From an uncultured bacterium (lineage in GTDB: Bacteria; CAYUVA01), in NCBI GenBank assembly GCA_964448115.1, contig CAYUVA010000029.1:7125-56265 (forward strand): a stretch of DNA of 49,141 nucleotides, read 5' to 3'. Each line of letters starts with the position of its first letter. Within the stretch, counting starts at the first letter, position 1. A program made the translations under genes and the position numbers. A model generated the notes under the pieces. It was not told the origin of the DNA. It did not search any database and saw nothing but the letters and a program-made list of their open reading frames with translations. This document shows positions 3,801 to 36,929 of the stretch, piece after piece.

Positions 3801-4695
3801 CTTCGAGCAATGCAATTACCAGGAAGCTCTGCGTTACTTCCAGCAGGCGTATAAGATAAAGAAAGAGTTGGGAAACAAAAAGGGACAGGCGATAACGCTT
3901 ACCCTTTTAGGATCTATATTTTATTTTCAAGCAAAATATGAACAGAGTCTTTCGTATTTTAATCAAGCCCTTGCTATAGACGAGGAGACCGAGGATAAAT
4001 TGGATATGATAAATAACATGATCAATCTTGGAGACCTGTTCAATACCATAGGAATGGTGGAAAAAGCCCTTCAGTATCACCAGATGGCGTGCGACCTGGC
4101 GGTCGGGATTGGTGATGTAGGAACCGAATCATCAGCTTTGGCTGGAAAAGCAAGGGATCTGGCATATATGAGAAAGCATCCCGAGGCACTGGAGGCGATA
4201 AATACGGCTATCGAGCTATCCAAGAACATCGGGATGAAGGATAAACTGGTAAGCGCTTGTTTGACATTGGCTGATATCAGACTTGAACTAGGTGAACCAG
4301 GAGATACCGGGGACTTGTGTGCACAATGTCTCGATCTTGCCAAAGAGGTGGGAGTGAGCTATCAATTGGTCGATCTTCACCTGACCTTGGCTAGGATAAT
4401 GCACCAAAAAAAGCAGTTCGAGGATGCAATCGAAGCCGCCAAAAGAGCGCTCTCCATGGCACAAGAACTGCAAATCCCAGAGTATTACTGGAAGAGCCAT
4501 CTGGTACTAGGAAATATTTATAGGGAAATACAAAAAAATGATGAGTGTCTAAAGGAATATAAGATGACCATGGAAGCCCTGGAGTCTATATACAAGATGT
4601 TCAAGGATAATGATCTAAAGAAGGCTTACATTAGCAGAAGAGATCGCCAGGAGGCTATCGAGATTATCCGTGAATTCGCAGGCAGGATGAGGTGA
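844..4695 (+). CDS. Serine/threonine protein kinase fused to an AAA+ (STAND-like) ATPase and a long TPR array (PknK-like architecture).
   Basis: Hanks kinase motifs: GEGGMGAVYKA, HRDLKPSNIM, DFGLAKD, SPEQ. Then a Walker A (GEAGVGKSRL) and a hhhhD Walker B (LFYLDNLHWSDEGS). Then more than 10 TPR-like repeats (e.g. AKCLNGIGIVHLMQGDYNQAMDCYNRSLEI). Confidence 0.9.
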   Translation: MIKDQVGNYKILAKLGEGGMGAVYKAYDLANKRTVALKFALSNIISEEVGLRRFEREIRAISRLSHPNITAVYDSGRSNGNIFYAMEFIDGSELKDYIRTENLSEQERFDRIFNSTAQVLRALSYIHSQRIIHRDLKPSNIMVAKDHIAKIMDFGLAKDIASKTMVTASGLVVGTADYMSPEQGSGKTLDQRTDLYSLGVILYEISTGRKPFSGDGPIQVIIKHIQEPPIPPRKYNSSITPMFEEIILKLMEKSPIDRFQTADETIEALKEAHQEFLEAGKASSQFDLPELEEIQPLLRHKDYLFKAQLVGRDHEFEQLVELVDQLKSGFGSLALLKGEAGVGKSRLVEELLTHLKFTEVRIFKGHCYEQRNIPYQVFSPIFDRIAAHLNRRGSSYAETIIGNTGKIIGRIFPIFNEIPYVKTLPEPAELPPGEEKIRLLSAIKNLFERLAAQQPCLFYLDNLHWSDEGSIELLEYLVENLLIPYEKAPIMFIGTIRSEELSENKALQRFQGKLQHRENVVMMEIKRLEQDQVGLILQQMLGMSHTPTRLTPKIFAESGGNPFFIEEVLNAMIEDGILYREGSQWQVRVDSYSQLIIPSSIKEVLKRRFRNLGEEEMDVLRWAAVIGEDFEFDVLMEAGEFDEDLLLDVIDQLLKYNLIFEKSVGMVEKYIFYHGKIRDVLYDEISQRRKKRHHLKIANAIEKIHKKRLDKYIQSLAYHYYNSPDLEKAFIYSKDAGLKAKLVFQNAEAINFFNQATQIYREQHQELSKDYYPEFIIVLTELGETQKLTGSYDEALETYQEMIRWAQERNDEKQVSIALGNLGDIYQMKGEFKEAKERFNESIEIAKRLNYKPGIAKCLNGIGIVHLMQGDYNQAMDCYNRSLEIEKQFGNQKAIAKLYNSIGAVHFYKRAYEQALDWFTKAYQIREELGDKSDMATSINNLGSVYDLLGQKNKSIPLYKESLKIAQEIGKKNDEAMCLHNIGYYHFEQCNYQEALRYFQQAYKIKKELGNKKGQAITLTLLGSIFYFQAKYEQSLSYFNQALAIDEETEDKLDMINNMINLGDLFNTIGMVEKALQYHQMACDLAVGIGDVGTESSALAGKARDLAYMRKHPEALEAINTAIELSKNIGMKDKLVSACLTLADIRLELGEPGDTGDLCAQCLDLAKEVGVSYQLVDLHLTLARIMHQKKQFEDAIEAAKRALSMAQELQIPEYYWKSHLVLGNIYREIQKNDECLKEYKMTMEALESIYKMFKDNDLKKAYISRRDRQEAIEIIREFAGRMR

Positions 4696-4733: not shown

Positions 4734-5687
4734 TCACGGCTTATCTTCCCTGTGATAATGACAATTAAGTATGGCACAATGCATCCTGCATCGACGGGTA
4801 AAAAGACGCATCCTTTGTGCCCTCTCGGACTCCCAGATCTCTTTGATTGGTTGTTCAATGAAGTTTCCGACCGGCGCGGTATTAAAACAGAGCATCACCT
4901 CTCCATAGGGGCTGAATGACATATTGGACTCTCCAACCTGGCATTGGATCTTCTTACTAGGGGTAGGATCGCGAAAATAATCGATGAATCCTCGCAATTG
5001 CCCAACCGTATTACTTATGAAGTTTGTCTTTTTCTTTTCTTCGATAAGCCATTCGATGACTTGACTTAGATACTCCAGATCCTTTATCCATAATGGGCTT
5101 TTAAGATGCCACCTGGGATCGAATTTGGTGCCGAAGTTCCAGCAGAGCGCCTGAAAGCCAATATAATACCCACGCTCAATTGCCCACTCTACAAGCTCCT
5201 CGATATTATAGAGATTATATCTCATAATAACCGCTGCGATGGCGATGGTTATGCGATCCCGATACGGCTCCAGGTGCTGAAGTGCCTTTATCACCCTGTC
5301 GTAAGCTCCTTTACTTCCCTTGAGGCTATTAAATCTTTCAGGATCAAGCGTGTCCAGAGAGACATTCAGTGTATGCAGTCCGCTTTGAGATATCTCTTCA
5401 GACATCCTTGCATCTATGAGAGTCGCATTGGTCGTAACGAAGGTCTTTACTCCATACTCATTCGCCTTACTAATAATTTCCCATAGATCTCGCCGGATGA
5501 GCGGTTCCCCCCCGGCAAAATGAAGCTCGTAATACCCTAGCCAATCACCAAGCTGTCTGATTAGCTTGATCCATTGCTCTTTGGTAGCTTCCTTTCTCCC
5601 CTTTCTGGTTTTCCACAGATCACAATGCAAACAACGCAGGTTACAAAGGTCAGTAATTGAGGCGTGAAGGCTTTTCGGCTTAGGCAT
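4734..5687 (-). CDS. Radical SAM enzyme with a C-terminal SPASM/twitch-like Cys-rich domain.
   Basis: CX3CX2C motif (CNLRCLHC) near the N-terminus and a GGEPL motif. C-terminal cysteines: CQVG...LCFN...CRMHCAILNC. It lies 55 bp downstream of dnaE on the same strand. Confidence 0.8.
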   Translation of the reverse strand: MPKPKSLHASITDLCNLRCLHCDLWKTRKGRKEATKEQWIKLIRQLGDWLGYYELHFAGGEPLIRRDLWEIISKANEYGVKTFVTTNATLIDARMSEEISQSGLHTLNVSLDTLDPERFNSLKGSKGAYDRVIKALQHLEPYRDRITIAIAAVIMRYNLYNIEELVEWAIERGYYIGFQALCWNFGTKFDPRWHLKSPLWIKDLEYLSQVIEWLIEEKKKTNFISNTVGQLRGFIDYFRDPTPSKKIQCQVGESNMSFSPYGEVMLCFNTAPVGNFIEQPIKEIWESERAQRMRLFTRRCRMHCAILNCHYHREDKP

Positions 5688-8700: not shown

Positions 8701-9219
8701 GGTGGCAACAAAGTGCTCCGCGCACTCATAAGCCTTTTTATCCTTGCCCTGAAGCAGCAATGAGGGTATCTCCCCCCGCAGACAACCGCTTAAGACAATA
8801 AGCCCCTGTGAGTGTTGAGACAACAGCTCCTTGTCTATCCTCGGTTTAACATAAAATCCCTCCAGGTGTGCTTTGGTGGAAAGGATACAAAGGTTATGGT
8901 AGCCGATCTCATTTTCTGCCAAGAGTGTCAAGTCGTAATATGACGATTCTCGGCTTCCCTTAGCTGAGGTGTCCCTCATCGAGCCTTTGGCAACATAAGC
9001 TTCCATGCCGATTATCGGATTGAGTGTTCTCTCGTCGCCTTCTTTCCTTTGCTTCTTTAGTATGCGATGGATCTCCACCGCGCCGAATAGATTGCCATGA
9101 TCGGTAATGGCTATTGCTGGCATCTTCAGCTCCTTTGCTCGAAGCACTAGACGCTCCAGGTCGCAAGCGCCATCGAGCAAGCTATATCCTGTATGTACAT
9201 GCAGATGCACAAAATTCAT
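5743..9219 (-). CDS. dnaE: DNA polymerase III alpha subunit.
   Basis: PHP-domain N-terminus MNFVHLHVHTGYSLLDGA, a 1158-aa length, and conserved polymerase core motifs (GPGRGSAAGS, FNKSHAAAYAL). Confidence 0.95.
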   Translation of the reverse strand: MNFVHLHVHTGYSLLDGACDLERLVLRAKELKMPAIAITDHGNLFGAVEIHRILKKQRKEGDERTLNPIIGMEAYVAKGSMRDTSAKGSRESSYYDLTLLAENEIGYHNLCILSTKAHLEGFYVKPRIDKELLSQHSQGLIVLSGCLRGEIPSLLLQGKDKKAYECAEHFVATFGRDNFFIELMDHGLTDQKKVLPKLIKLANDLSIQKVATNDCHYIMPEDAEAHDILLSIQTQKQFDDPNRLRFQSTQFYLKTAEEMNRLFDEHPDAISNTLSIAKRCHVEFEFGKPKLPHYEPPEGYSLTEYFEHEVQEGLKAKFDTGKIPGSMYNQYKERLNHEIEIIKDMGFEGYFLIVWDFVSYAKSKKIPVGPGRGSAAGSLVAYSLGITDIDPIKYDLIFERFLNQGRKSMPDIDIDFCKVRRDEVIDYVAGKYGEDRVANIITFNTLKTRAVMKKVGNAMGIPFQELNKITKLISPDKDMTVEKAIKEVPELREYQQREPKIKKLLEVSAVLEGLPSNQSKHAAGIVISDQSLIGSIPLVRDQDNKEASVTQFTMKDIEALGLLKADFLGLRTLTVIDETVKMIMDLHNIKIDPQKIPLDDTKTLQLFSKGETVGVFQFESAGMRKTLRLCGIDKFEDLIAMVALYRPGPMDLIPDYAARKHGKEKITYLDQRMEDILKETYGIMVYQEQVMRIANRIAGYNLVEADELRKAMGKKKPEIMERHKEKFVSGAVRRGMTETSAKVLWEQIVKFAGYGFNKSHAAAYALVAYQTAYLKTYFPSEYMACHLNSYLDSIEDLVKYINECKRMGLEVLPPNINKCDVRFAPEGKKIYFGLSAIRNIGQATAEKLIEERKNRGEFSSIFELCERMTATHLNAKILENLIKSGALDELEGNRQQKMMVLDRALGLAQEMAKGKEKKHLSIFDFDPNGSLASVDKSLPEAPEFTQREMTSYEKQTLGFYITGHPLDRFERELKYFTNADIAVLNELSDESEVAIAGVINKVVRRKSKKNNYMYARITLEDQVGLIEVIVPSRLFEEIRNMLEENLCVLVNGKLDKKDDKLSLRAFRITPLEELRKSSSAMTISLNAMLTDHRMINRINEILYAHPGDCRVFFEVEIPRRYGREGVLALIDSNLRSCPEDELVNDLEKLLGDNCLRFA

Positions 9220-9500
9220 CTATTGCCTCCCATGATTTCGAGCTCGTATGTACTGCAATTGATAAGCGATCCTTAAGAGCGCGCTATTTCGCATGCCGAA
9301 AGGTGCTTCCACAATTTAATAATGACTCATTTGGGCATTCCCGCGCTCTCGTTTGTCATTCCCGCCCAGGCATGAACCCATATCTGGATCATTATATTAC
9401 CCCTTCTACCTGCGGAATGAAAGTGGTATCAAAGCCTTATCTTCTGATTAACATATTGATTATAAAGCACATTTTTCAGAAAACTCGATTTCATATCAAA

Positions 9501-10217
9501 ATGGATTTACCTAGCAGCGATTTTAGGATAACATCTTCGTCCATGGACAAGGGCACGCTATATGGCATCATCGCGGTTGTTACATTAACTCTGCTTGGCA
9601 TCGCAACCATGTTCATCCCCTTTGAGCACTCATCCCATGCGCAAACCGAGTCGCGCATCCCTGTCGGAGAGATCAAAGCGGATAATGTCATTGGACAAAC
9701 CTTCATCAGCCGCTACCCGAACCTTTACGCAATCTCTGTTTTTATGGCGACCTACCAAAGAGTGAACCGCTCTATGCTTCAATTTAGACTAAAGGAAAAG
9801 CCTGATTCGCCTGAACCATTGCGCGAGATCTCGGTAAACGCATCGCAGATCGAGGACAACCAGTATTATCGCTTTGAGTTTGTGCCTCTAGCAGCGAGCA
9901 GGAATCGGCATCTTTACTTTGAGTTATCTGCGCCGACCGCCAGCGAGGGGGATGCGGTTACCGCCTGGGCATCGCTGCGCGATTTTTATACAGACGGAAG
10001 CCTGATCATCAATGGCAGGGTTTCTGACGGAGACCTTCGTTTCAGCCTTCACCATCGAGTGCGCGGCTATGAGTTACTGGCAGTATTTTTAGAGCGCGCC
10101 GCCTCGCAGAAGCCGGGCATCTTAGGCAACCGTTGGTTTTACTTGTTTCTCTTATGCACCTATGGTCTAGTCGTATTATTCGTCATATTCCTCACCATCA
10201 GGCAGCTTATAAGCTGA
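9501..10217 (+). CDS. Hypothetical membrane-anchored protein. The start is uncertain. The track ORF begins at 9114 and overlaps the dnaE start, so the first internal Met after dnaE was used.
   Basis: Long ORF with an N-terminal TM segment (LYGIIAVVTLTLLGIATMFIP) and a C-terminal TM (WFYLFLLCTYGLVVLFVIFLTI). No recognisable family. Confidence 0.4.
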   Translation: MDLPSSDFRITSSSMDKGTLYGIIAVVTLTLLGIATMFIPFEHSSHAQTESRIPVGEIKADNVIGQTFISRYPNLYAISVFMATYQRVNRSMLQFRLKEKPDSPEPLREISVNASQIEDNQYYRFEFVPLAASRNRHLYFELSAPTASEGDAVTAWASLRDFYTDGSLIINGRVSDGDLRFSLHHRVRGYELLAVFLERAASQKPGILGNRWFYLFLLCTYGLVVLFVIFLTIRQLIS

Positions 10218-10601: not shown

Positions 10602-10630
10602 TTGACAATGAAGATATACTCAAATAATAA
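10602..10630 (+). promoter_or_regulatory. Putative sigma70-type promoter for dsrA.
   Basis: TTGACA at 10602-10607, a 17-bp spacer, then TAATAA at 10625-10630. The dsrA RBS AAGGAG lies at 10675-10680, and all of this sits inside a 467-bp AT-rich leader. Confidence 0.3.
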
Positions 10631-10686
10631 TGTTTGTTGTCTCTAGCGAGTGAATAGTTGAAGCACCTTCTAGAAAAGGAGAGAAA

Positions 10687-11901
10687 ATGGGCGACAAGAA
10701 ATACCCGCTAATTGAAGAACTGGAAAAGGGACCCTGGCCGAGCTTCGTTAAAGAAATCAAGAAAGCTGCGGCGAAAAACGAGATGGCTGAGGATCTCTTA
10801 GGGCAGTTGGAGACATCCTACGAGGAGAAGATAGGACACTGGAAGCACGGCGGAATCGTCGGCGTACTCGGTTACGGTGGTGGAGTAATCGGAAGATATT
10901 CCGATATCCCAGATAAGTACCCCAAGATATCACACTTCCACACCATGCGTATCAACATGCCCTCTGGTTGGTTCTACACCAGCGAGAAGCTCAGAACGAT
11001 ATGCGACATCTGGGATCGCCACGGCTCAGGCATAACTAACATGCACGGCTCTACAGGCGACATCATCTTTTTGGGCACTGTAACCGATGAGCTTGAGCCG
11101 ACCTTTGCAGATCTGACCAAAGCTGGATTCGACCTGGGTGGGTCTGGTTCGGTGCTGCGGACTCCCAGTGCCTGCAACGGCATGGCTCGCTGCGAGTGGG
11201 CTTGCTACGACACGCTCAAGGTCTGCAATGCGCTAACTCATGAGTACCAGGATGAGCTTCACCGCCCCATGTTCCCCTACAAGTTCAAGTTCAAGTTTGC
11301 CGGCTGCCCCAATGACTGCGTGGCTTCCATAGCCAGAGCGGATCTTTCGGTTATCGGCACCTGGCGAGATAACATCCAGATAGATCAGGACGCAGTAGCT
11401 GAATATGCCGCAACCGGCATGGATATTCAGGGCGATATCATCGAGAGATGCCCAACCAGATGTATGAAGTTCGACGGCAAGAAGATCCAGATTGACAACC
11501 GCTACTGTAACCGCTGTATGCACTGCATCAACAAGATGCCCAAGGCTCTAAAGCCTGGCAAAGACAGAGGCGCCTGCATCCTGCTCGGTGGCAAGGCTCC
11601 TATCATGGAAGGCGCGCTGCTTTCCTCGGTGCTGATTCCATTTATGAAGATCGAACCTCCCTACGACGAATTGAAGGATCTCATCGATCGCATCTGGGAG
11701 TTGTGGAGCGAGGAAGGTAAAAACCGGGAGCGCGTTGGCGAATATATGCAGCGCATCGGACTAGGAAACTTCCTAGAGGAGATCGGCGTTGAACCTCACC
11801 CGGATATGGTAAACCACCCCAGGGAGAACCCCTACATCTTCTTCGAGGAGTACCTCGTTGAGGATGATGAAGAAGAAGTTGAAGATGAAGAAGAAGAATA
11901 G
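10687..11901 (+). CDS. dsrA: Dissimilatory sulfite reductase alpha subunit.
   Basis: N-terminus [18 protein letters not shown] matches the DsrA consensus ...GPWPSFVSDIKQEAA. Also conserved: [48 protein letters not shown] and the ferredoxin-like CPTRCM...CNRCMHC. It ends in an unusual acidic tail, [13 protein letters not shown]. Confidence 0.95.
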
Positions 11902-11962
11902 AACAACCTGTTGGAAACAATGAAAGGTAACCATGAATTCAATCTTTCGGAGGTTAACATAA

Positions 11963-13036
11963 ATGGCTGAAGACAGAATCACCGATATTGGACCACCTAA
12001 TTACGAGGACTTTCTACCGCCGGTAATCAAGAAGAACTACGGCAAATGGAAGTACCATGAGATCATAAAAGCCGGGGTTATGTTCCATGAGGCAGAAAGT
12101 GGAGATCGGATCTACACGGTAAGAGCTGCTACTCCAAGATTGGCTGCAACCGCGACAATTAGGCTATTCGCCGACCTTGCTGACAAGTATTGCGACGGAT
12201 ACCTGCGATGGACCAGCCGCAACAATGTCGAGTTTCTACTTACCAATCCGGATAACATCGATCCCCTGATCGAGGATCTCCAGAAGGAAGGTTACCTGGT
12301 CGGCGGTATGGGCAGGGCTATCTCCAATATCGTGCATACCCAGGGCTGGGTACACTGCCACTCGGCAGCCACAGATGCATCTGGTATCGTCAAGTCGGTA
12401 ATGGATGAGCTGGCTGAATACTTTACTACTAAGGATCTTCCAGGCAAACTGAGAATTGCCTTGGCTTGCTGCCTGAACATGTGCGGCGCAGTGCATTGCT
12501 CGGATATAGCCATCTTGGGTGTTCACAGAAGACCACCGACCATCCTGCACGACACTCTGCGCAAGCTGTGCGAGATCCCGACCACCATCGCCTCCTGCCC
12601 GACAGGTGCTATTCGGACGGCAACGGTAAACGGGCAACCGAGCGTCGAAGTTGAGGAGGATCTCTGCATGTTCTGTGCGAACTGCTATACGGTCTGCCCC
12701 TCCATGCCTCTTAACGATCCGCTCAACGATGGTCTGTCAATCTGGGTTGGTGGCAAGGTCTCCAATGCAAGGAGCGCTCCCAAGTTCTCCAAGCTGGCAA
12801 TTCCTTATATTCCAAATAATCCACCGAGGTGGCCCGAGGTGGTTGATGCTGTAAAGAAAATCGTCGAGGTCTGGCTGAAGAATGCCAAGAAGGATGAAAG
12901 ACTCGGTGAGCTTATCGATAGGATCGGCTGGACAAGGTTCTTCAAAATGGCTGATATCGAGTTCACCAAGTATCATATCGATGATTTCAAGTTTGCTGGT
13001 ACAACCTACAAGAAGACCACCCAACTATTCTACTAG
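11963..13036 (+). CDS. dsrB: Dissimilatory sulfite reductase beta subunit.
   Basis: Conserved DsrB motifs: [68 protein letters not shown]. The GGAGG RBS lies 8 bp upstream. Confidence 0.95.
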
Positions 13037-13048
13037 GGGTGAAAAGCT

Positions 13049-13300
13049 ATGGGTAAACCTACAATTGATGAATTGGCTGATGCCATGTATGAGATGGTCA
13101 AGGAAGCCACTGGGCGCAAGAAGCTCAAGCCTATGGATCTTATAAAGGCAGCCAAAGATAAGTTTGGCGATGAGAATGTTGATAAGAAAGATGGCAAAAA
13201 AGCTATAAACAAGCTCATCGATGAAGGTCGTTGCGTTTACACCTACTTTGGGGGCAGCTTCGTAGAACTGCCTCACAAGGACGGCGCTGCCAACGAATAG
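13049..13300 (+). CDS. dsrD: DsrD, the small winged-helix protein of reductive dsr operons.
   Basis: 83-aa Lys-rich protein immediately after dsrB. The C-terminal YTYFGGSF pattern resembles the DsrD ...YWSSGSTTMY... region. Its position matches the usual dsrABD order. Confidence 0.8.
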   Translation: MGKPTIDELADAMYEMVKEATGRKKLKPMDLIKAAKDKFGDENVDKKDGKKAINKLIDEGRCVYTYFGGSFVELPHKDGAANE

Positions 13301-13356
13301 ATCGCCAGGCCATCGTTTGAAATAAGAACAACATAAGCCGATTCAGTTAAAATTAT

Positions 13357-13399
13357 GGAACAGGGAACTTTTCATAGTATAGTTCTCTGTTCCTTTTTT
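13357..13399 (+). terminator. Putative intrinsic terminator/attenuator between dsrD and dsrN.
   Basis: GGAACAGGGAACT...AGTTCTCTGTTCC forms a stem of about 12 bp with one mismatch and an 11-nt loop. It is followed directly by TTTTTTC. Confidence 0.55.
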
Positions 13400-13404
13400 C
13401 TTGT

Positions 13405-14871
13405 ATGAACCAAGGCAATAAATTAAAGAAAAACTCTAAGGATATAGAATTATCTTCCGATGAAAGCAGATATAATTCAGCACCTCTCCCCTACCCTCGC
13501 ATTGTGATAGCTGGGGCGAGTGGAGATTCGGGCAAGACCCTGATTTCACTCGGATTGTTATCTTATTTCTTAAGTCAAGGCATGTCCCTGGCTGCCTTCA
13601 AGAAGGGACCAGATTACATAGACTCAGCCTGGCTCGGAGAGGCTATACAGGGCAAGGCACGCAATCTCGACCCCTTTCTTATGGGGGAAGATTCCCTGCT
13701 TAGTTGCTTCTTGACAAGCGCATCAGGGAAGGAATTGAGCATTATCGAGGGAAATCGTGGTTTATGCGATGGTGTTGATGTGGAGGGGAGCTTCAGCACT
13801 GCCAAGCTCGCCAGATTGCTGGATGCACCGGTTATCCTGATAGTAAATGTAACCAAGATGACGCGGACATGCGCAGCATTGGTGCTCGGCTGCAAGATGA
13901 TGGAACCGGAGGTAAACATTGCCGGGGTGATCCTTAACAAGGTAGCCGGAACCAGGCATGGCAGGGTGGCAGGTCAAGCTATCGAATCTTACACCGGCAT
14001 CCCTATAGTCGGCAGCGTGCCCAAATTATCCGAAGACTTTCTTCCCAGCAGGCACCTCGGCTTGATAATGCCTCGTGAGCATCCCAGGTTCGGCGATATG
14101 ATACATCGAATCGAGTCGAAGATCATCGATCACATCAATGTAGATCGCATCTTAGAGATAGCTCGCTCTGCAAGCGTAATGCAATCGGTTCCAGTTGACC
14201 TGTTTGGTGAGGCAGTTGCTGATGAAAAGTCGGTGCGCATCGCCTTTTTTTGCGACCAGGCTTTTTCTTTTTATTATCCTGAAAATCTGGAAGCACTCGT
14301 GCATCACGGCGCTGAGCTGGTGCCCGTGTCCTCCATAGATGCTGATCAGCTACCGAATGATATCCAGGGGCTTTATATAGGCGGTGGATTTCCTGAGCTT
14401 CTCGCCGAGCGCGTCTCCTCCAACCAATCGTTGCGTCGTTCTGTAAAGGATGCTGCCGAGGCAGGCTTACCTATCTATGCGGAATGTGGCGGGATGGTGT
14501 ATCTTTCTGATGAGCTTTTCTGGGAGGAGCGACAGTTCCCCATGGCAGGCGTGCTTCCAATCAGCATTCGTATGCACCCTAAGCCGCAAGGGCACGGGTA
14601 TTCAGAGATTTTGGTGGATAGAGACAACCCGTTTTTCAACATGGGCGAACGCCTTTTGGGGCATGAATTTCACTACTCGCGCATAGTATCGGGATTCGAG
14701 AAGATATACACGGTCTATAAACTAAAGAAAGGAACCGGCTGCTACGAGATGCGCGATGGGATTACATACAAGAATGTCCTGGCAAGCTATGTGCATCTTC
14801 ATGCTCTTGGATCAAGCAGTTGGGCGCCCGGTTTCGTACAAGCAGCAGTTCGATATAAAAAAGGATCATAA
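13405..14871 (+). CDS. dsrN: DsrN, a CbiA/CobB-like siroheme amidase (cobyrinic acid a,c-diamide synthase homologue).
   Basis: P-loop region IVIAGASGDSGKT plus a C-terminal glutamine amidotransferase domain (YAECGGMVYL, GHEFHYS). It lies directly downstream of dsrABD. It has an N-terminal extension of about 30 aa. Confidence 0.8.
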   Translation: MNQGNKLKKNSKDIELSSDESRYNSAPLPYPRIVIAGASGDSGKTLISLGLLSYFLSQGMSLAAFKKGPDYIDSAWLGEAIQGKARNLDPFLMGEDSLLSCFLTSASGKELSIIEGNRGLCDGVDVEGSFSTAKLARLLDAPVILIVNVTKMTRTCAALVLGCKMMEPEVNIAGVILNKVAGTRHGRVAGQAIESYTGIPIVGSVPKLSEDFLPSRHLGLIMPREHPRFGDMIHRIESKIIDHINVDRILEIARSASVMQSVPVDLFGEAVADEKSVRIAFFCDQAFSFYYPENLEALVHHGAELVPVSSIDADQLPNDIQGLYIGGGFPELLAERVSSNQSLRRSVKDAAEAGLPIYAECGGMVYLSDELFWEERQFPMAGVLPISIRMHPKPQGHGYSEILVDRDNPFFNMGERLLGHEFHYSRIVSGFEKIYTVYKLKKGTGCYEMRDGITYKNVLASYVHLHALGSSSWAPGFVQAAVRYKKGS

Positions 14872-15933
14872 GAAACCTTGTCCCTTCAGAATCTCCATCA
14901 GGTATCTACCTGTTTTTGAGATATCCCATTTTTTATGATGATCAGGAGCAAGGCTGCACAGGCTCTCATAAAGCGATTCGCTTTCCATGATCCGGAAAAT
15001 AAGCTCTGCTATCGTGGCATGATCCTTTTTATGTATCAAAATCCCCGCATTTTGGAGCGTATCGGGAATAGCGCCTGCCGCATAGGCAATAATAGGCAGC
15101 CCAAAGTAGTTCGCCTCCAACAAGGGCACACAGAATCCCTCGTGTTCGCTCATCGAGATGAGCAGATGGCTGTTACGCATCAGGGTGCAAAGGTCGCGGT
15201 GATCCAGCTTACCCATGAAATAAGCCTCGTGTAGATGCAGCCGCTCAGCCATATTAAGAAGCCTGTAATAATAGCTTTCCAGGTGATCGAACTTGCCGAC
15301 CATGATTAGTCTTGCTCGATCGGTCAAAGTCCGGCTCAGGATCGCAAATATCTTCAGGATATCCTCATAGCACTTGTTTGGCGATATCCGTCCCACATGA
15401 AGTATATTGAAGCGACCATCGTCGAATATGCTTTTAAGCACTGGATTATCGGGCACATCGAACTTCGAGTAATCAACCCCAAAGGGGAGCACATCGGTGT
15501 TTTGAAAGCCCCGCTCTTTCAGTTCACTCTCATTAAAAGCCGAATCTGCAAGCGCGAGGTCCACAGTCTCTTTAAGATACGCAAGATGATCCCTCCCTGC
15601 AATCGACATGCGCACCAGCACCTCGTCTAGCTCCTTGAAGTACTTTGCCGGGGTAACATTGTGATAGATCATCACCTTTTTCCCCTTGGCATCATGCAGT
15701 TGGTGGGACAGGAAGCTGGGTATGGCGTAATGGAGAATATTTATCGCATCCTCGGTGTCATACTCGGCAAAGCGTCTGCTCGGGATGCCCAATGGCGCTC
15801 GCGGGGGGTCGGCATCGATATAAAATACATTCGATTCGAATCCCTGCCCTGCAAAGAAGCGCATCAAAGCAAGCGCATTATCGCCGGTGGCATCACCATC
15901 GTGCCAGGCGGGCAACATCTGGTTTATTCGCAT
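14866..15933 (-). CDS. Glycosyltransferase family 1 (GT4-like).
   Basis: EHEGFCVPLLEA motif and Rossmann-like GT-B features. It is a paralogue of the next gene. Confidence 0.85.
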   Translation of the reverse strand: MRINQMLPAWHDGDATGDNALALMRFFAGQGFESNVFYIDADPPRAPLGIPSRRFAEYDTEDAINILHYAIPSFLSHQLHDAKGKKVMIYHNVTPAKYFKELDEVLVRMSIAGRDHLAYLKETVDLALADSAFNESELKERGFQNTDVLPFGVDYSKFDVPDNPVLKSIFDDGRFNILHVGRISPNKCYEDILKIFAILSRTLTDRARLIMVGKFDHLESYYYRLLNMAERLHLHEAYFMGKLDHRDLCTLMRNSHLLISMSEHEGFCVPLLEANYFGLPIIAYAAGAIPDTLQNAGILIHKKDHATIAELIFRIMESESLYESLCSLAPDHHKKWDISKTGRYLMEILKGQGFL

Positions 15934-17002
15934 CTAGAGCCTCGTCTATAATTTTTTTTAATTTAGACTCAAAGTCATAATCCTCAAGTTGTACAAGCCT
16001 TTGTCGCTGGGTTTTAATTACCTCTTGAGAAAGCTTCTCATCGGTACATAGCTTTGATACCAGCCCGGCGATCTCCGGGGGATTCTTTATCGTTAATCGT
16101 ATCCCCGCATTGCCCATAGTTTCGGGTATGGCTCCAGCCAGGTAGGCAATGACCGGGATGTCCGCCTGGAAAGCCTCTATCAGGGGTACGCAGAAGCCCT
16201 CATGTTCGCTGAGGCACAGGAAGACATCTGCCAATTGATAATAAGCAGCCAGGTCTCCATCGCTGATATGCCCGGTGAAATATACATCGCTGAGGCTATA
16301 TTTCTCCTTGAGGCTCAGCAGCTTGTAGTAGTATGGCTTAAAGGGTCCATGATCACCGACTACAAAGAGCCTAGCGTTTGGATGATATTGGCGCTTGAGA
16401 TAGTAAAATACTTCCAGGAGATCCTCCTGTTTCTTATTTGGAGTTATTCGCCCCACGAATATGATGTTAGGGCCACGGCCGGCAAACATTCTTATGATGG
16501 TGGGATTCGGGGCAACCCTTGAGGTAACCGGCTGCACCTTTATGGGCAAAACATCTGTGTCATCGAACCCTAGATGTTCAAGGTCTTTGCGGTTGAACTC
16601 AGAGTCTCCCACCGCGATAGTGCATCGCTTGGATAGCTGCACCAGCCGCCGCCACCCCTCTAAGGTGCGATTCACCAGCTCATCATTAACGCCATAAAAG
16701 TACTTAGCGGGCGTCATGTTATGGTAGATAAGCACCAGGCGGTTGGGCATCTTGTAGAGATACTCAGAGATGATGCCACCCACGCTATAGTGGTAAATAA
16801 GGATATCATCGCCGCCGTTCTCCGTGGGATAATCGACGAATCTTTTCGCTAATCCCCTGACCTTGGGGTGGATCACCTCGGCGAAGATCTCGGATTCAAA
16901 TCCCCATCCCATAAGCACCCTCTGGATATAAAGTGCATAATTGCCGATTGCATCTCCAAAGGAGAAGCCGGGCATGAACTGATGTACGGCAGGCTTGGTC
17001 AA
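15893..17002 (-). CDS. Glycosyltransferase family 1 (GT4-like), tandem paralogue.
   Basis: EHEGFCVPLIEA plus shared HNMTPAKYF and GRI(S/T)PNK motifs with the preceding gene. Confidence 0.85.
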   Translation of the reverse strand: MTKPAVHQFMPGFSFGDAIGNYALYIQRVLMGWGFESEIFAEVIHPKVRGLAKRFVDYPTENGGDDILIYHYSVGGIISEYLYKMPNRLVLIYHNMTPAKYFYGVNDELVNRTLEGWRRLVQLSKRCTIAVGDSEFNRKDLEHLGFDDTDVLPIKVQPVTSRVAPNPTIIRMFAGRGPNIIFVGRITPNKKQEDLLEVFYYLKRQYHPNARLFVVGDHGPFKPYYYKLLSLKEKYSLSDVYFTGHISDGDLAAYYQLADVFLCLSEHEGFCVPLIEAFQADIPVIAYLAGAIPETMGNAGIRLTIKNPPEIAGLVSKLCTDEKLSQEVIKTQRQRLVQLEDYDFESKLKKIIDEALDANKPDVARLARW

Positions 17003-18192
17003 CGACCGAGCACCTCCTCGATAAGCGAGACGATCTTGTCCTCGATGGTCTGCCAGTTATAGTTTTCTTTTATGTAAGCACATCCGGATTCTCCCATTCG
17101 TTGCCTTATCTGCGGGTTTTTCAAGAGAAACTCCACGGTAGCACGAAACTCTGGGTAATTCTCATAATAAAGCCCGCCGTTGCTTCTTATGGTCTGTCCC
17201 TTAGTTACCGCACAGCGTCCGTTTACCAGGGTTGCCTTGCCCATAACCCATGCCTCCAGGATTACAATCGACAAGCTCTCGTAGAAGCTAGGGAGAATGA
17301 GAAATTCACAGGCTGATAGCGCATCGTACTTGTCCTGATCATCGATGTAGCCAATATGTCGAATCTTGGGGTGTTCAGGGATAGAAAGAGCAGGGGTTCC
17401 AGCCAAAACCAAATGGACATCGAGCGCGGCGTTATCCATCAGCCGGGTAAAATAGGTAAAAAGCTCCTCGCAGCCCTTGTTTCGGTCTATCCTGCCAATA
17501 TATAGAACGAACGGTTCAGTGATATTATAATTTTTCCGAAATCGCTCCCCATCAACACTAGCGGGAGGATCAATAGGAGAGCCGATGATGCGGTTGGGTA
17601 TTTTATCTGCCGGTGAAAAGCGCAGTACCAGCTCTCTCTCCTCTGGGGTCAGGTAAAGTATCCCAGCAACCTTGGGGAAGATCTCCTTGAATATCTCCAA
17701 TCGCAGTGCGGGATCGTCCTCTGCGGTGGGGACGAGGATTGTCTTTCCAGGCAGCATGGTTACGGTCTGGTAGGCAGTGTAATATCGAAAGCTGTAGGCG
17801 ATGATGCCATGAAATAGATGATGGTCTTTCTTGAGATACTTCACCAGGGCGGGGCAGTAGGGACCATTTTCCTTTACCCATTGCAGTTCCTGCTTCCGGG
17901 TGTGTTCAGTCTCGAATACATCAGCGGACAGCCAACTGAAGCGCCTGAGTCTCCTTTGCCTTTTAACCTTGAAGCGAGTAACCTTGATATTGTTTACCAG
18001 GTCATCTCCAGGCGGATATTTATTGCTCCAGCTTATGTAATCCTCGGCACAGGTGGTCAGAACATGGATTTCATACTTGTCTGATAATCTTTCAGCGATC
18101 CAGCGACAGTGGGTCTCAGCCCCGCCGCCTACCTCAAGCCCATAGCGCTGAACAACAAAGGCAAGTCGTTTTTTTGCTTGTTTTGCTTTCAT
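16999..18192 (-). CDS. Glycosyltransferase family 1.
   Basis: GT-B C-terminal motif ESLSIVILEAWVMGKATLVN and the nucleotide-sugar-binding E-x7-E region. The N-terminus carries a GGGAETH-type motif. Confidence 0.8.
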   Translation of the reverse strand: MKAKQAKKRLAFVVQRYGLEVGGGAETHCRWIAERLSDKYEIHVLTTCAEDYISWSNKYPPGDDLVNNIKVTRFKVKRQRRLRRFSWLSADVFETEHTRKQELQWVKENGPYCPALVKYLKKDHHLFHGIIAYSFRYYTAYQTVTMLPGKTILVPTAEDDPALRLEIFKEIFPKVAGILYLTPEERELVLRFSPADKIPNRIIGSPIDPPASVDGERFRKNYNITEPFVLYIGRIDRNKGCEELFTYFTRLMDNAALDVHLVLAGTPALSIPEHPKIRHIGYIDDQDKYDALSACEFLILPSFYESLSIVILEAWVMGKATLVNGRCAVTKGQTIRSNGGLYYENYPEFRATVEFLLKNPQIRQRMGESGCAYIKENYNWQTIEDKIVSLIEEVLGR

Positions 18193-18719
18193 TGCTGCTT
18201 TTCAGGGGGAAAGACGAGTTCTTCGAGCGCTTTTTCCCGTTTCTTGAGTATCTCCAGCTCCCCCTCCAAATGCAGGATTCTATGCTCCAGGTTCTTTTTT
18301 TCTATCTCTGATTTGGTTAACTCGAAGGTCAAATTGTGCAAGATATGCGCATAGTAAAAATTTAGCCAATACTGTCTCTTAAAATTCTCCTCGGTGAACT
18401 CGATGAACCATCGAATGAGGGGTCTTACGATCTTCCTTTTAAATAGAACAATAAGCCTGCCAATCCCCTTGCGGTGTGATTTAATTTGGTGGCGGACGCT
18501 GATATTCCACTTCCCTTCGGCGCTGTGGAACTCCTGGAGTATCTCCATATCGAGATCCGGCGCCTTGTAGATCTTTTCGAGCTTGGCTTGTGCTATCTGC
18601 TGGATCTCCTCCTCGTAATATCTACCCTCTTGCTTCCTTTTTTCTATATCGCGGCGGATATCTTCCATTATCTTTTCGATATTGACCTTATCGCTGTTAA
18701 GCTCGAAGGTGTTCTCCAT
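18189..18719 (-). CDS. Hypothetical coiled-coil protein.
   Basis: Highly charged heptad-like sequence (EKRKQEGRYYEEEIQQIAQAKLEKIYK ... LEHRILHLEGELEILKKREKALEEL). It is translationally coupled to the upstream GT. Confidence 0.5.
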   Translation of the reverse strand: MENTFELNSDKVNIEKIMEDIRRDIEKRKQEGRYYEEEIQQIAQAKLEKIYKAPDLDMEILQEFHSAEGKWNISVRHQIKSHRKGIGRLIVLFKRKIVRPLIRWFIEFTEENFKRQYWLNFYYAHILHNLTFELTKSEIEKKNLEHRILHLEGELEILKKREKALEELVFPPEKQQ

Positions 18720-18937
18720 GATACAAGCTCCTTAGCATTTATTTTTCATTTAGGCTCAAAGCGATGTTATCTAATTTTAGGCTTTTAGTAAATCATCATA
18801 ATAGGGCTATACATATTAAAGACTATTAAACCACAAAGCATGCCCTAGTTCAGAGCAATGGGCACAAAGTCCTTTGAATGCCGGGTAAGAAAATGATAGA
18901 TCTTGAATGCTGAAGAGAACCTCGAACTGCTGGCAAA

Positions 18938-19693
18938 ATGGCAACTAAAGAGATCATCGGTACTGTCAAGAAAGCCCTGAATGATATTGAACCTGATGGC
19001 AAGCTGCTGCTCGATGTGAGTTGCGGCAAGGGAGAACTCCTGTTAGCGCTCAAGGACTCTGGCTTCAAGCTAAGGGGAACCAGGCTGGAGCGGAAATACT
19101 TCGGATTCGTGGATCTGCTTGATGGCACTGGTATCAAGGTCGATGAGCCGGTTGACCTTCTCGAGGGTCTTCCCTACCCTGATAGCTCGGTCGATGTAGT
19201 TGTCTGCATCGAGGTGCTCGAACACCTGGAGAATCATCGCCGGGCAATATCAGAGCTTTCCAGGGTGCTAAAAGCAGGAGGAATATTGATCCTGAGCACG
19301 CCGAACATCATGCGCCTGACCTCAAGGCTGCACTTTTTGTTGACCGGTTTGCACAAGGCGAGGCGCCCCGCCATCCCTTACCAAACTTCACTTGAGGAAT
19401 CGATGCGATATCATAACTACCCAGCGTACTTGCCAGTTCTGGATTATTTACTTTACGCACATCGGCTCGATATCGTCGAATTTCTCCCCTGTAACATCAA
19501 GGCGCCAGCAAGGGTGCTTTATTACTTGCTTTATCCGGCGATCATGCTTGATACATGGTTTACATTGCGCTTCAGGGAAATGGAGCTTGCAGCAAGCGGA
19601 GATTGGCGACGATTATTCAGGATGCTGACCAATCCTTATGTATTGGTGGGAGATCTTATTTTCATTAAAGCCATAAAGCTGCCGTTTAACTAA
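18938..19693 (+). CDS. Class I SAM-dependent methyltransferase.
   Basis: Motif I LLDVSCGKGELLLAL, post-I acidic residue, and motif IV GGILILSTPN. Confidence 0.75.
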   Translation: MATKEIIGTVKKALNDIEPDGKLLLDVSCGKGELLLALKDSGFKLRGTRLERKYFGFVDLLDGTGIKVDEPVDLLEGLPYPDSSVDVVVCIEVLEHLENHRRAISELSRVLKAGGILILSTPNIMRLTSRLHFLLTGLHKARRPAIPYQTSLEESMRYHNYPAYLPVLDYLLYAHRLDIVEFLPCNIKAPARVLYYLLYPAIMLDTWFTLRFREMELAASGDWRRLFRMLTNPYVLVGDLIFIKAIKLPFN

Positions 19694-19694
19694 C

Positions 19695-20480
19695 TCAAAT
19701 ATTGAAGATATTTATACCCGTAACAGCTGATGCAGCCCTCTTAAACGCTTCCTTGTCTCCAGAACAAATAAACTGTAACTTCCCATTAGATTCAGGGGGT
19801 ATCTTAAGCGAATTATATACCCTGACTGCCTGTTTTGCGACCGCCTCGGCAGGGCTGAAGATCCTGATATCGTAAGGGGCAAGCTCCCTTATCAGTGGGG
19901 TCAGAAAATGATAATGCGTACATCCAAGAACCAAATTTTCAACACCCTGGCTAAAAATTGGGTCAAGGATCCTCTTTAGTATATCCCTTGCGACATCGCC
20001 GTTGACCTCTCCCTTTTCCACAAGCTTGGCAAGCCCTGCGGTGCAATGTGTATATACCATGCGGTCATCCGCGAAGCGCTTGAGCAGATCGCGGTATTTT
20101 TTTCCCTCTGAGGTGGTCTGGGTCAACAGGATAGCCACCGCTTCATTGCTGTTAACCGATGCTGGCTTCACCGCTGGCTCCACGCCGACAAAGGGTAGAT
20201 CAAAACGCCGGCGAAGATGCTCGATGGCAGCGACGGTGGCTGTATTGCAGGCGACCACGATCATAGCAGCTCCCATTGATTTGAGCATCTGTGTAATAGT
20301 GCTGCTAAACTCGATGATCTCCTTACTGGTTCGCTCGCCATAAGGGAAATGCGCATTATCGCCATAGTAAACGATATCTGCATCCGGCAGAAGCCTCCTC
20401 ACCTCAAGCAATATGGAAAGCCCACCGATACCGCTATCGAACATACCGATCATGAGGATGCGATCGTAGCAGAAAACCAA
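19695..20480 (-). CDS. murI: Glutamate racemase.
   Basis: Conserved FDSGIGGLSIL, VVACNTAT and LVLGCTHY motifs. The real start may be the internal Met (MIGMFDSG). Confidence 0.85.
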   Translation of the reverse strand: MVFCYDRILMIGMFDSGIGGLSILLEVRRLLPDADIVYYGDNAHFPYGERTSKEIIEFSSTITQMLKSMGAAMIVVACNTATVAAIEHLRRRFDLPFVGVEPAVKPASVNSNEAVAILLTQTTSEGKKYRDLLKRFADDRMVYTHCTAGLAKLVEKGEVNGDVARDILKRILDPIFSQGVENLVLGCTHYHFLTPLIRELAPYDIRIFSPAEAVAKQAVRVYNSLKIPPESNGKLQFICSGDKEAFKRAASAVTGINIFNI

Positions 20481-25163: not shown

Positions 25164-25166
25164 ATT

Positions 25167-26195: not shown

Positions 26196-26246
26196 CAATA
26201 CACGCGATAGTTCTTATCTAGGGAAAGTATCCCTGTAATTGTAATT

Positions 26247-27608: not shown

Positions 27609-27647
27609 TCTGATATTCCCAAGATGGAGGGCTGGGAATGGAAAGCT

Positions 27648-29477: not shown

Positions 29478-29536
29478 TTATTGCCTTTATGCCTAGTTGG
29501 TTTTGTTCTGGATATGCTAAGAAACTTACAACAATA

Positions 29537-31594: not shown

Positions 31595-31828
31595 CTTTGA
31601 CTCAAAGATTGATTTTGTTTGATATTGTACATAGTTATATATACTTCCAAATTATTAAGATTTCAAGCAAAAGCGAACTTTTATTGACATTTAGATCAAA
31701 AGGTTATGAAATTGTGATCGAAAATACTGACAGGTGCTTCCTGAACTTAACACTAAAGACAAAAGTCTAGGGCTTTTCACTTAAGGGTCTAAAATTGGTC
31801 TTTTAGGGAAAATACGCGCTCACCCCAG

Positions 31829-31906
31829 CCCTCTCCCAGAGAGAGGGCGTAGGAACTGGAAAGGGTGATCCCATCCCTTCTCTCTGGGAGAGGGTTAGGG
31901 AGAGGG
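31829..31906. repeat. GC-rich twin palindromic repeat element (REP/MITE-like) upstream of the pduS-like gene.
   Basis: CCCTCTC-CCAGA-GAGAGGG at 31829-31847 and CCCTTCTCTCTGGGAGAGGG(TTAGGGAGAGGG) at 31875-31906. Both sit in an otherwise AT-rich 367-bp intergenic region. Confidence 0.5.
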
Positions 31907-31961
31907 TCTTTCACCTGTAAGTAGAACAGTATAAAACTATAGTATAAAGACTCCTTCCATT

Positions 31962-33275: not shown

Positions 33276-33279
33276 TAAA

Positions 33280-33828: not shown

Positions 33829-33854
33829 GGCATGGGGATTGATAGTCTTTGAAC

Positions 33855-34045: not shown

Positions 34046-34057
34046 AACTAAAAAACT

Positions 34058-34363: not shown

Positions 34364-34367
34364 TGTT

Positions 34368-34649: not shown

Positions 34650-34664
34650 TATTATAATAATTAT

Positions 34665-36929
34665 TTAATAATTATTGCCAAATAATTTTTTAATTTCTTG
34701 TTCCATTTCATTAAATTCTTTCTCCGTTTCAACTTTCATTTCTTCTCTAGCTTCAATGAAAATTTTTATTAATTCTTTCTTAAAATCTTCTCTATTAAAT
34801 GCTTCTTCTAATTCTAAAATCATTTTATCAATTGTAAAGCCTAATACTATAGAACTTAAAGTGCCACCAACAATGGCGCCTGCTGCTGTCCCAGCTCCTG
34901 GAATAACAGACCCAATCCCACCTCCAATTAATGCAGCTAAACCTTTTCCCATGGCTTTCTTTCCTAAAATTTTTGTAAACGCCTTTGCGGCGGCTTTTAT
35001 TGTGCCTTTTGCTGCAATTTTTGATACTATTTTCTTTGTAATAATTGCCGTGAATATTCCGCCGGTTGCAGCACCACCTACACTAGCACCTATATTATAT
35101 TTCGTCATATTAAAATTTTCTAATGTAATTATTATATTTTCCATACTACGATCTACAATAATATCACGATTTGGATAGGAAATATCTATTTTATATTTTT
35201 TAACAATTTTCATTATATCTTTCTCATATTTGTTAATTAACTTATTTATTTTATTACAATATTCTATATATTTTTCATTATTTATTGCATCGATATTATG
35301 CTCTTTTAATTTTTCCTTAATAATATCTTTTAGTTTAGCTTCAATATATTCATTTAATTTACCTTGGAACATATTTATTATGCGCATATATTCTGCTGGC
35401 AAAGAGTAATACCAGTTTAAAAAAGGATCTATACCTTCTATCGCAATATCAAAAGTTTTATCTATAAATATATTTTTATGCTCTTGATATTTAAAATTAA
35501 TACGCTCAATTTCTTTTTCATAAAATTTATTTATCTTATTTATTTTATTAATACCATCTTGGTTAATATATATATCATTTCCATTTATAATAATTCTAAA
35601 AGCATGTTTTATTCCTTTTTCAATGTACTCTCTTTTTTCTTTAGAACTTTCGAAATATTTCCTGGTTTCCAACAGAAAATTTAATCCTCCCAACAAAGGA
35701 ATATAAATAAATATTACACTAAAAACTAAAAATAGCGTGCAGATAAAAATTTTATTTTTAGAAATAGGAGGTGGAATATCCTCGCGACCACGAGAAAATT
35801 CAAAGATTCTTCCATACTCATTCCAGGGTATAAGCAAAAATAAATATAAAAAACATGCAATACTAAAAAGCGGTAAATTAAATAAAAATATTATACCTAA
35901 TTTTAATAATATCCTCAATTTCTTTGTATCATTTTTATTCATGGATTGATACTTTATATGATTTTTAATAAAATTAATAGAATAATCTTCAATTGCAACC
36001 TTATAAGAATAAATGTATGAAATTTCTTTTATTAATTTCATAGAATGCATATTATCTACTAATTCTTTCTTTTTACTAATTACTTCTTCTAACGAATTAT
36101 ATGATGGAACTGGTTTTAGTATAGGGATAAAAATTACACATAATAAAGAAGCAATTATTGGAGTAAATCCCAGCGCCAAGGATATTGGATAATAATAAGA
36201 AAGATATTGCTGAGTTTCTTTTTTAACAAGCTTTCTAAAAATTGAAAAAACAAGGTAAAATATCGGTGCAACTGAAAAAATAATCAACCATTCATATATA
36301 TTATAAAATTGAAATTGTATTACTAATAGCCATGACATTGCATGTGCTATAATAATCCAAATAAATATTCTAAGAATGGTTCCAGAAAATAATCGATTTA
36401 TAATGCCTTCGGAATTAAAAGATTGTAGAAATTTCAACCGTCTAATTGTTGATCTATATAGCAAAGATAAAAATATTGATAAAGTTAGTAGGATAAGCAA
36501 TAAAATTTGAGAAATAATTGCAAATTCAGAATAAGTTAAATAAACTAAAATAATTATTAATAAGGTAAAAATAATTATCTTTACCATATATCTCCAAAAC
36601 AAATTACTTGTCTTAAATTCATTTACCATGGACTGTTTAGACTTCAAACTATCATTTGGTGCTAGTTTATCTTCATGCAAAATATTCCCTGTTTCATTGA
36701 TAGTTTGTTTTACTTGCTTTGTGGCTTTTTTTCTGAAAAATAGTATATATAAAATAATAAAAATAAATATCCATAATATAAATACCACATAAGGGGAAAA
36801 ATCAGAATTGTATAAAATAGCAAATGAAATGAATAATATAAAAGTAGAAACCAAACTTATGATTAATGCAATTATCGATAATAACAAAATCAATAAAAAA
36901 CTCTTAATCCATTTAAATAATTTTTTCAT
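34665..36929 (-). CDS. Large polytopic membrane protein encoded in an AT-rich (~25% GC) island. Its C-terminus is a Gly/Ala/Lys-rich glycine-zipper region.
   Basis: The ORF is 754 aa (2265 bp), rich in K/I/N/F/Y, with more than 10 hydrophobic segments. C-terminus GASVGGAATGGIFTAIITKK...GGGIGSVIPGAGTAAGAIVGGTLSSIVLG. The composition contrasts sharply with flanking DNA. Confidence 0.55.
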   Translation of the reverse strand: MKKLFKWIKSFLLILLLSIIALIISLVSTFILFISFAILYNSDFSPYVVFILWIFIFIILYILFFRKKATKQVKQTINETGNILHEDKLAPNDSLKSKQSMVNEFKTSNLFWRYMVKIIIFTLLIIILVYLTYSEFAIISQILLLILLTLSIFLSLLYRSTIRRLKFLQSFNSEGIINRLFSGTILRIFIWIIIAHAMSWLLVIQFQFYNIYEWLIIFSVAPIFYLVFSIFRKLVKKETQQYLSYYYPISLALGFTPIIASLLCVIFIPILKPVPSYNSLEEVISKKKELVDNMHSMKLIKEISYIYSYKVAIEDYSINFIKNHIKYQSMNKNDTKKLRILLKLGIIFLFNLPLFSIACFLYLFLLIPWNEYGRIFEFSRGREDIPPPISKNKIFICTLFLVFSVIFIYIPLLGGLNFLLETRKYFESSKEKREYIEKGIKHAFRIIINGNDIYINQDGINKINKINKFYEKEIERINFKYQEHKNIFIDKTFDIAIEGIDPFLNWYYSLPAEYMRIINMFQGKLNEYIEAKLKDIIKEKLKEHNIDAINNEKYIEYCNKINKLINKYEKDIMKIVKKYKIDISYPNRDIIVDRSMENIIITLENFNMTKYNIGASVGGAATGGIFTAIITKKIVSKIAAKGTIKAAAKAFTKILGKKAMGKGLAALIGGGIGSVIPGAGTAAGAIVGGTLSSIVLGFTIDKMILELEEAFNREDFKKELIKIFIEAREEMKVETEKEFNEMEQEIKKLFGNNY

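Follow-up and report, generated by a model that had tools for sequence, protein, structure and literature searches.

The closest described systems with solved structures are the DsrAB of Archaeoglobus fulgidus (PDB code 3MM5) and the DsrAB–DsrC of Desulfovibrio vulgaris (PDB code 2V4J). In all solved DsrAB structures, the C terminus of DsrA forms an arm that crosses to the other α-β heterodimer, and Asn-393 of A. fulgidus DsrA inserts into the opposite DsrB (bioRxiv 10.1101/2021.12.28.474277). A further group comprises the reductive bacterial-type DsrAB of uncultured phyla, which were surveyed by Diao et al. (2023; PMC10591310) and Hausmann et al. (2018; PMC6018796). Here, we analyzed a dsr locus within a 49,141-nucleotide stretch of DNA from an uncultured bacterium (contig CAYUVA010000029.1); the whole stretch is referred to as the window. 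We assign the locus with high confidence to a four-gene operon, dsrA–dsrB–dsrD(-like)–dsrN, of the reductive bacterial type and from a new lineage. This confidence concerns the identity of the operon and does not extend to the function of the acidic C-terminal tail of its DsrA. The list of open reading frames (ORFs) exactly reproduces the coordinates of the four genes in a preliminary description of the window (Table 1). The operon is ordinary for its kind and encodes the enzyme that is used by anaerobic bacteria to respire sulfite.

Identity and placement of DsrAB

DsrA reaches 586.3 bits on the NCBIfam equivalog TIGR02064 (cut-off 392.85) and DsrB 502.1 bits on the equivalog TIGR02066 (cut-off 341.5); the Pfam assignments agree with NCBIfam for dsrA, dsrB, and dsrN. 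Both subunits align end to end with crystallized counterparts, DsrA with the A. fulgidus enzyme (PDB 3mm5_A, E 3.7e-168) and three Desulfovibrionales enzymes, and DsrB with PDB 3mm5_B (E 2.8e-139). The window proteins share with those of A. fulgidus and D. vulgaris the domains that define the fold, the siroheme–[4Fe-4S] and ferredoxin cysteines, and the NP[YF] motif that anchors the C-terminal arm. Compared with the crystallized enzymes, DsrA is shorter (404 versus 418 and 437 residues), with a gap near the N terminus and no equivalent of the ferredoxin-domain insert of Desulfovibrio, and DsrB lacks the insert of A. fulgidus DsrB.

The DsrA cysteines that correspond to the siroheme–[4Fe-4S] ligands (Cys-163, Cys-169, Cys-207, and Cys-211; C-x5-C … C-x3-C) and those of the ferredoxin domain (Cys-255, Cys-259, Cys-274, Cys-277, and Cys-280) are invariant in 36 homologs and align with the ligands of A. 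fulgidus. Judging from the family scores, the conserved cysteine ligands, and 56–61% identity to the crystallized enzymes, DsrA and DsrB form an α2β2 siroheme–[4Fe-4S] enzyme that reduces sulfite.

The closest DsrA homologs found in a database search are 71–78% identical to the window protein, and none exceeds 78%. These proteins (∼400 residues) belong to the reductive DsrAB of uncultured phyla, namely Zixibacteria, GN15, Elusimicrobiota, Ignavibacteria, Omnitrophota, Gemmatimonadota, and Acidobacteriota. They share with the window an EEY[FY]EE motif followed by a poly-Asp/Glu tail, the gene order dsrA–dsrB–small ORF–dsrN, and a DsrD-like protein that is negative in Pfam. The window holds the minimal dsrABDN version of the operon, like a Zixibacteria chromosome (L010; L numbers denote related loci), and lacks the downstream dsrL and siroheme-synthesis genes of some of these relatives. 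When only representatives at 50% identity were searched, DsrA collapsed to a few clusters, mostly of fragments, and this search supplied archaeal outgroups and one oxidative-like sequence. At 90% clustering, the window proteins that were looked up are singletons, except for DsrA, which shares its cluster with a 48-residue fragment.

The identity of DsrA to reductive references (60.7% to A. fulgidus, 58.1% to a Desulfobaccales sequence, and 55.7% to D. vulgaris) is higher than to oxidative-type sequences (45.7% to P0243 and 39.8% to rdsrA of the SUP05 phage Lau218). P0243 was taken as oxidative-type because its C terminus resembles that of Lau218 rdsrA and because both sequences cluster at a bootstrap of 100. 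In a neighbor-joining tree of DsrA (389 columns, 200 bootstraps, rooted on Pyrobaculum), the window protein belongs to the clade of the reductive bacterial type (bootstrap 77), where it sits in a crown group of sequences from uncultured phyla (bootstrap 80); the oxidative pair (bootstrap 100) stands apart. DsrA therefore does not group with oxidative enzymes in this tree. Family scores, the identity gradient, the tree, and the conserved synteny described below all support an operon of the reductive bacterial type, as the preliminary description had proposed.

The DsrD-like protein and DsrN

The third gene of the operon starts 12 nucleotides past dsrB and encodes a protein of 83 residues. The order dsrA–dsrB–small ORF recurs in 72 related loci from more than 10 phyla, in which the small ORF occupies a slot 12–35 nucleotides after dsrB and is in most cases directly followed by dsrN. 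The small ORF is conserved among relatives. Among the remaining related loci, one of sufficient length clearly lacks it, one is masked by a run of N, and six are cut by contig ends. The clear absence is found in a metagenome-assembled genome (MAG) of the Myxococcota (L021, positions 12292–12469), whose DsrA is 66% identical; here, 177 nucleotides without a DsrD-like ORF separate dsrB from dsrN. In acidobacterial MAGs, the small ORF that is paired with dsrN has been called DsrD, and hydrophobic residues common with the D. vulgaris protein were described (Hausmann et al. 2018, PMC6018796). DsrD has also been counted in Zixibacteria, Acidobacteriota, and others (Diao et al. 2023, PMC10591310).

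The family of the window protein comprises 976 detectable members of ∼81 residues, which are 63–75% identical to it across phyla. Its invariant positions include the motif YTYFGGS..E.PH. None of the best 120 members listed carries a Pfam domain, and nearly all that are named are “hypothetical protein”; occasional NCBI or JGI labels are “phosphopantothenate synthetase” and “transcriptional regulator.” A confident AlphaFold 2 (AF2) model of the 83-residue protein (predicted local distance difference test score (pLDDT) of 88.8) features three helices and a β-hairpin, which together form a winged helix with a fold like that of D. vulgaris DsrD (PDB code 1UCR; PF08679). The aligned identity to the latter is ∼15%, with no significant sequence match. 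Foldseek searches with the model returned generic winged-helix domains, including Zα of ADAR1. In a profile–profile comparison with hhalign, the family is collinear with DsrD over its whole length, at a weak P of 0.04 and with a canonical profile drawn from Desulfovibrionaceae only. Reciprocal hidden Markov model searches between the DsrD-like family and DsrD gave similarly weak scores of 7–10 bits, with a homolog from a Thermodesulfovibrio bin scoring best.

Several results weigh against a DsrD in this position and against a reductive dsrABDN operon. The 83-residue protein matches neither the Pfam family DsrD (PF08679), at a threshold as loose as E ≤ 10, nor any NCBIfam model for DsrD; D. vulgaris DsrD, the positive control, scores 118 bits on PF08679, and the homolog from the Thermodesulfovibrio bin is likewise negative. 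Searches of the PDB with the ORF (phmmer) and with the family profile found no DsrD, nor did hhalign detect a significant match to a single DsrD sequence. The model of the protein is structurally no closer to DsrD than to ∼50 other winged-helix domains. The neighbor-joining tree is built on DsrA alone with few references and backs the reductive clade at a moderate level (77). Finally, dsrC and dsrMK, which are needed for a working pathway, are not in the 49-kb window, to which this result is confined. In line with the preliminary description, no dsrC, dsrMK(JOP), dsrL, or dsrEFH was found in the window, nor was sat or apr (Pfam scans of large non-overlapping ORFs of at least 120 residues outside the operon; the leftover small ORFs were judged by eye only), and the DsrC signature C-x10-C-x-stop is absent from every frame. 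On the gene content of the window, the organism may reduce sulfate, sulfite, or thiosulfate or may disproportionate sulfur.

On balance, the 83-residue protein is probably a divergent DsrD, even though it formally fails the curated family model. This assignment relies on position, size, fold, and the weak reciprocal profile signals, of which position is the strongest argument. The label dsrD given in the preliminary description is thus backed by slot, size, and winged-helix fold and is not recognized by PF08679 or NCBIfam. By analogy, a divergent DsrD would bind DsrAB and stimulate sulfite reduction as an allosteric activator. It is rather improbable that the protein is instead an unrelated small winged-helix DNA-binding protein, such as a regulator of the operon that occupies the dsrD slot, since its size, fold, and slot equal those of DsrD across more than 10 phyla and the profile signals to true DsrD, weak as they are, are collinear. 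At 65–75% identity across phyla, the protein is also as conserved as DsrAB, as would be expected of an enzyme partner more than of a regulator, and specialist papers take this ORF to be DsrD (PMC6018796, PMC10591310). In addition, the very title of the D. vulgaris DsrD structure paper proposes binding to B- and Z-DNA by the winged-helix motif of DsrD (Mizuno 2003, cited in PMC6018796).

If the small ORF is DsrD, its presence, together with the lack of dsrEFH and dsrL in the window, adds to the tree in support of the reductive reading, because this combination indicates reductive chemistry, possibly within disproportionation (Ferreira et al. 2022, PMC8794893). Oxidative or disproportionating operation in vivo has precedents, as reductive-type DsrAB with DsrD are documented in sulfide oxidizers and disproportionators such as Desulfurivibrio and cable bacteria (PMC8794893, PMC10591310), and close relatives (L037) carry a gene of DsrL-like domain architecture between the dsrD-like ORF and dsrN. 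However, neither dsrL nor dsrEFH is present in the window, the DsrD-like gene is there, the placement of DsrA is reductive, and DsrAB has been argued to run reductively even in disproportionation (Ferreira et al. 2022, PMC8794893). We consider it quite improbable that the enzyme runs in one of these modes despite its reductive type.

The last gene of the operon encodes DsrN, which follows the DsrD-like ORF. DsrN scores 431 bits on TIGR00379 (cobB; cut-off 261) and possesses the full-length CbiA and GATase_3 architecture, along with a match to AAA_26 in Pfam. It remains below the cut-off for the Ni-sirohydrochlorin diamide synthase CfbB (410 versus 560 bits), and the libraries searched contain no model specific for DsrN. 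DsrN has the same CbiA and GATase_3 layout as the a,c-diamide synthases of the CobB family and is encoded in the dsrN position. Because of this family membership and the synteny, DsrN is presumed to be a siroheme amidase; it most likely amidates the siroheme cofactor, with the cobalamin enzyme CobB as the formal alternative.

The acidic C terminus of DsrA

The last 18 residues of DsrA (positions 387–404) comprise 14 aspartates and glutamates and no lysine or arginine, as the preliminary description had noted, compared with 14.2% acidic residues in the remaining protein. The binomial probability of this enrichment is 2.5e-9 for one 18-residue stretch and ∼1e-6 when corrected for all positions. 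The terminal residues that this tail replaces in A. fulgidus DsrA are 20 in number, carry mixed charge, follow the FF motif, and end in a tryptophan. As judged from the aligned C termini, the two tails differ in composition, not in length, and the claim that the canonical DsrA tail is longer (20 residues in A. fulgidus versus 18 here) has to be withdrawn.

Asn-393 of A. fulgidus aligns with Asn-381 of the window protein, which is part of the invariant Asn-381–Pro-382–Tyr-383. The anchor of the crossing arm is therefore retained, and only the terminal helix is swapped for a polyanion. In an AF2 model of the DsrA monomer, whose mean pLDDT of only 67 is mediocre, the C-terminal 29 residues (376–404) show a pLDDT of 33–36 and are thus left unmodeled. 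The tail is a probably disordered polyanionic appendage that is typical of the lineage and replaces the terminal helix of the C-terminal arm.

Acidic tails are found in all 120 nearest DsrA homologs (71–78% identity), with 6–15 aspartates or glutamates and at most two lysines or arginines among the last 18 residues. The homologs that are named belong to Zixibacteria, candidate division GN15, Omnitrophota, Ignavibacteria, and Elusimicrobia. To follow the trait further, we used a set of 80 species-representative genomes that encode a DsrA relative. Most of them show the pattern EEY[FY]EE followed by 5–20 acidic residues, and an acidic tail is present in ∼50 of 70 related genomes at the species level, drawn from more than 10 phyla. 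Tail length varies from 7 to 25 residues across relatives. Several DsrA of the Acidobacteriota, Thermoanaerobaculia, and Myxococcota type (69–73% identical; 70–73% for the Acidobacteriota) have no acidic tail and end 3–9 residues past NPY[IV]F[FY], for example in KKEE, KDEA, or QLS. Because the acidic tail is common in the nearest homologs, variable in length, and missing in close sister lineages, it is, by comparison of these homologs, a trait at the level of the clade and not peculiar to this genome. The tail had been described as atypical, which holds relative to the few model enzymes with solved structures, whereas in its own clade it is the norm. Because sister lineages end 3–9 residues after the Asn–Pro–Tyr anchor, the tail is probably dispensable for catalysis. 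We found no description of an acidic DsrA tail in the searchable literature.

Most likely, though with low confidence, the tail would tune surface electrostatics or solubility rather than chemistry. An artifact of assembly or a frameshift would be conceivable for a GAA/GAT-rich coding sequence of low complexity, which is prone to slippage; however, two independent assemblies, a Logan contig and the NCBI contig, yielded an identical protein, homologous tails were present in every one of 120 independent assemblies, and the tail ends at a clean stop codon, with dsrB at a normal distance. An artifact can practically be discounted on these grounds. A further reading takes the tail as a functional element for the docking of the Lys-rich DsrD-like protein, DsrC, or an electron donor and as the mark of a mechanistically distinct subtype of DsrAB. 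The acidic composition is kept in all 120 nearest homologs and in many phyla behind a conserved EEY[FY]EE start, the DsrD-like protein has 16 lysines and arginines, several of them invariant, and the tail stands in for a helix at the heterodimer–heterodimer interface (bioRxiv 10.1101/2021.12.28.474277). Nevertheless, among ∼70 related operons, no clear link emerged between the presence of a long acidic tail and the PH(K/R)EGAA motif at the C terminus of the DsrD-like protein (43 of 52 versus 14 of 20). Across the same operons, the charge of the tail is uncorrelated with the net charge of DsrB (rho 0.18, p 0.13) and with that of the DsrD-like protein (rho 0.03); phylogeny confounds both comparisons. 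In addition, Acidobacteriota with the same DsrD-like protein have tails of four residues, and a length range of 7–25 residues resembles low-complexity sequence under weak constraint.

A role in docking is consequently unlikely, and the earlier suggestion that the tail affects the docking of DsrC or another partner finds no support, given the lack of co-variation in charge or motif and the existence of close relatives without a tail. A bolder view, which we regard as speculative and doubtful, is that polyacidic-tailed DsrA and the Pfam-invisible DsrD-like protein together define a widespread, unstudied subtype of DsrAB in Zixibacteria, Ignavibacteria, Elusimicrobiota, Gemmatimonadota, and other phyla. 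In such a subtype, the terminal helix of the bridging arm would be exchanged for a disordered polyanion that recruits a basic partner (the Lys-rich DsrD-like activator, DsrC, or an electron donor) or alters communication between the active sites.

Operon signals, genomic setting, and implications

The features of the operon and its candidate flanking signals are collected in Table 1. The candidate promoter, found by a consensus scan and by reading the sequence, lies 55 nucleotides upstream of the dsrA start; promoter-like sites are not in excess in this region, with four observed and 6.6 expected from shuffled sequence. The ATG of dsrA is preceded by the ribosome-binding site AAAGGAGAG.

Table 1. 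Features of the dsr operon and its flanks (window coordinates)
Feature	Position	Strand	Size or composition	Basis or remark
Candidate σ70 promoter	10602..10631	+	TTGACA, 18-nucleotide spacer, AATAAT	11/12 consensus matches; pattern match only
dsrA	10687..11901	+	404 amino acids	ORF list and TIGR02064
Coding part of the polyacidic DsrA tail	11845..11898	+	Residues 387–404	GAA/GAG/GAT-rich codons
dsrB	11963..13036	+	357 amino acids	ORF list and TIGR02066
DsrD-like small winged-helix protein	13049..13300	+	83 amino acids	dsrD slot
dsrN	13405..14871	+	488 amino acids	TIGR00379; Pfam CbiA, AAA_26, GATase_3
Terminator-like hairpin with T-run	14899..14922	+		Just 3′ of dsrN, within the 3′ end of a convergent glycosyltransferase gene; consensus-scan pattern only

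The operon is flanked by genes for DnaE and a putative membrane protein upstream and by three GT4 glycosyltransferase genes downstream. A comparison with the flanks of 80 related loci revealed no gene in common. The upstream ORF of 367 residues (positions 9114–10217) runs into the 5′ end of dnaE, which is encoded on the opposite strand, and the call on the Logan contig starts later (281 residues, ∼9372–10217); the ORF has no family match and is membrane protein-like by eye.

Related loci differ in the spacing of the last two genes. A gap of ∼1.8–2.3 kb separates the dsrD-like ORF from dsrN in Gemmatimonadota, Planctomycetota, and some Acidobacteriota (L037, L028, L034, L047, L056, L072, and others). 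In the Gemmatimonadota locus L037 (positions 12701–20364), the gap holds a gene for a 561-residue protein with DsrL-like domains (Fer4_20, Pyr_redox_2, and Fer4_21), and dsrN is followed by siroheme-synthesis genes that encode NAD_binding_7, a ferrochelatase–GluTR fusion, and a HemD–methylase fusion.

Elsewhere in the window, positions 844–4695 encode a 1283-residue protein with a Ser/Thr kinase domain, an AAA_16 ATPase domain, and many TPR repeats, which is adjoined by the gene of a radical-SAM/SPASM enzyme (4734–5687). The region from 24000 to 34650 carries two Zn-dependent alcohol dehydrogenases (24000–26195), an RnfC/PduS-like flavoprotein (31962–33275), and a tandem-BMC-domain shell protein (33280–33828); two small ORFs (34058–34363 and 34311–34649) resemble the vertex protein EutN/CcmL by eye. 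The region has the appearance of a partial bacterial microcompartment locus. Between 34000 and 37800, the GC content drops sharply to 0.24–0.34, compared with ∼0.47 elsewhere. The trough holds a single ORF of 754 residues (34665..36929, minus strand) that has no match in Pfam or NCBIfam, followed by ∼900 bp of AT-rich non-coding DNA, and looks like a foreign island.

The operon marks dissimilatory sulfite or sulfate reduction in one further uncultured lineage, which is a routine finding. The DsrD counterpart of a very large environmental DsrAB clade, by comparison, is missed by both PF08679 and NCBIfam. Annotation pipelines that use these models would score such genomes as dsrD-negative; inferences on which way sulfur metabolism runs draw on dsrD. 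The polyacidic tail of DsrA is clade-wide and replaces a structural element at the heterodimer interface. If the tail were a docking site for a partner, it would bear on the activation of DsrAB and its supply with electrons in the dominant phyla of environmental dsrAB diversity.

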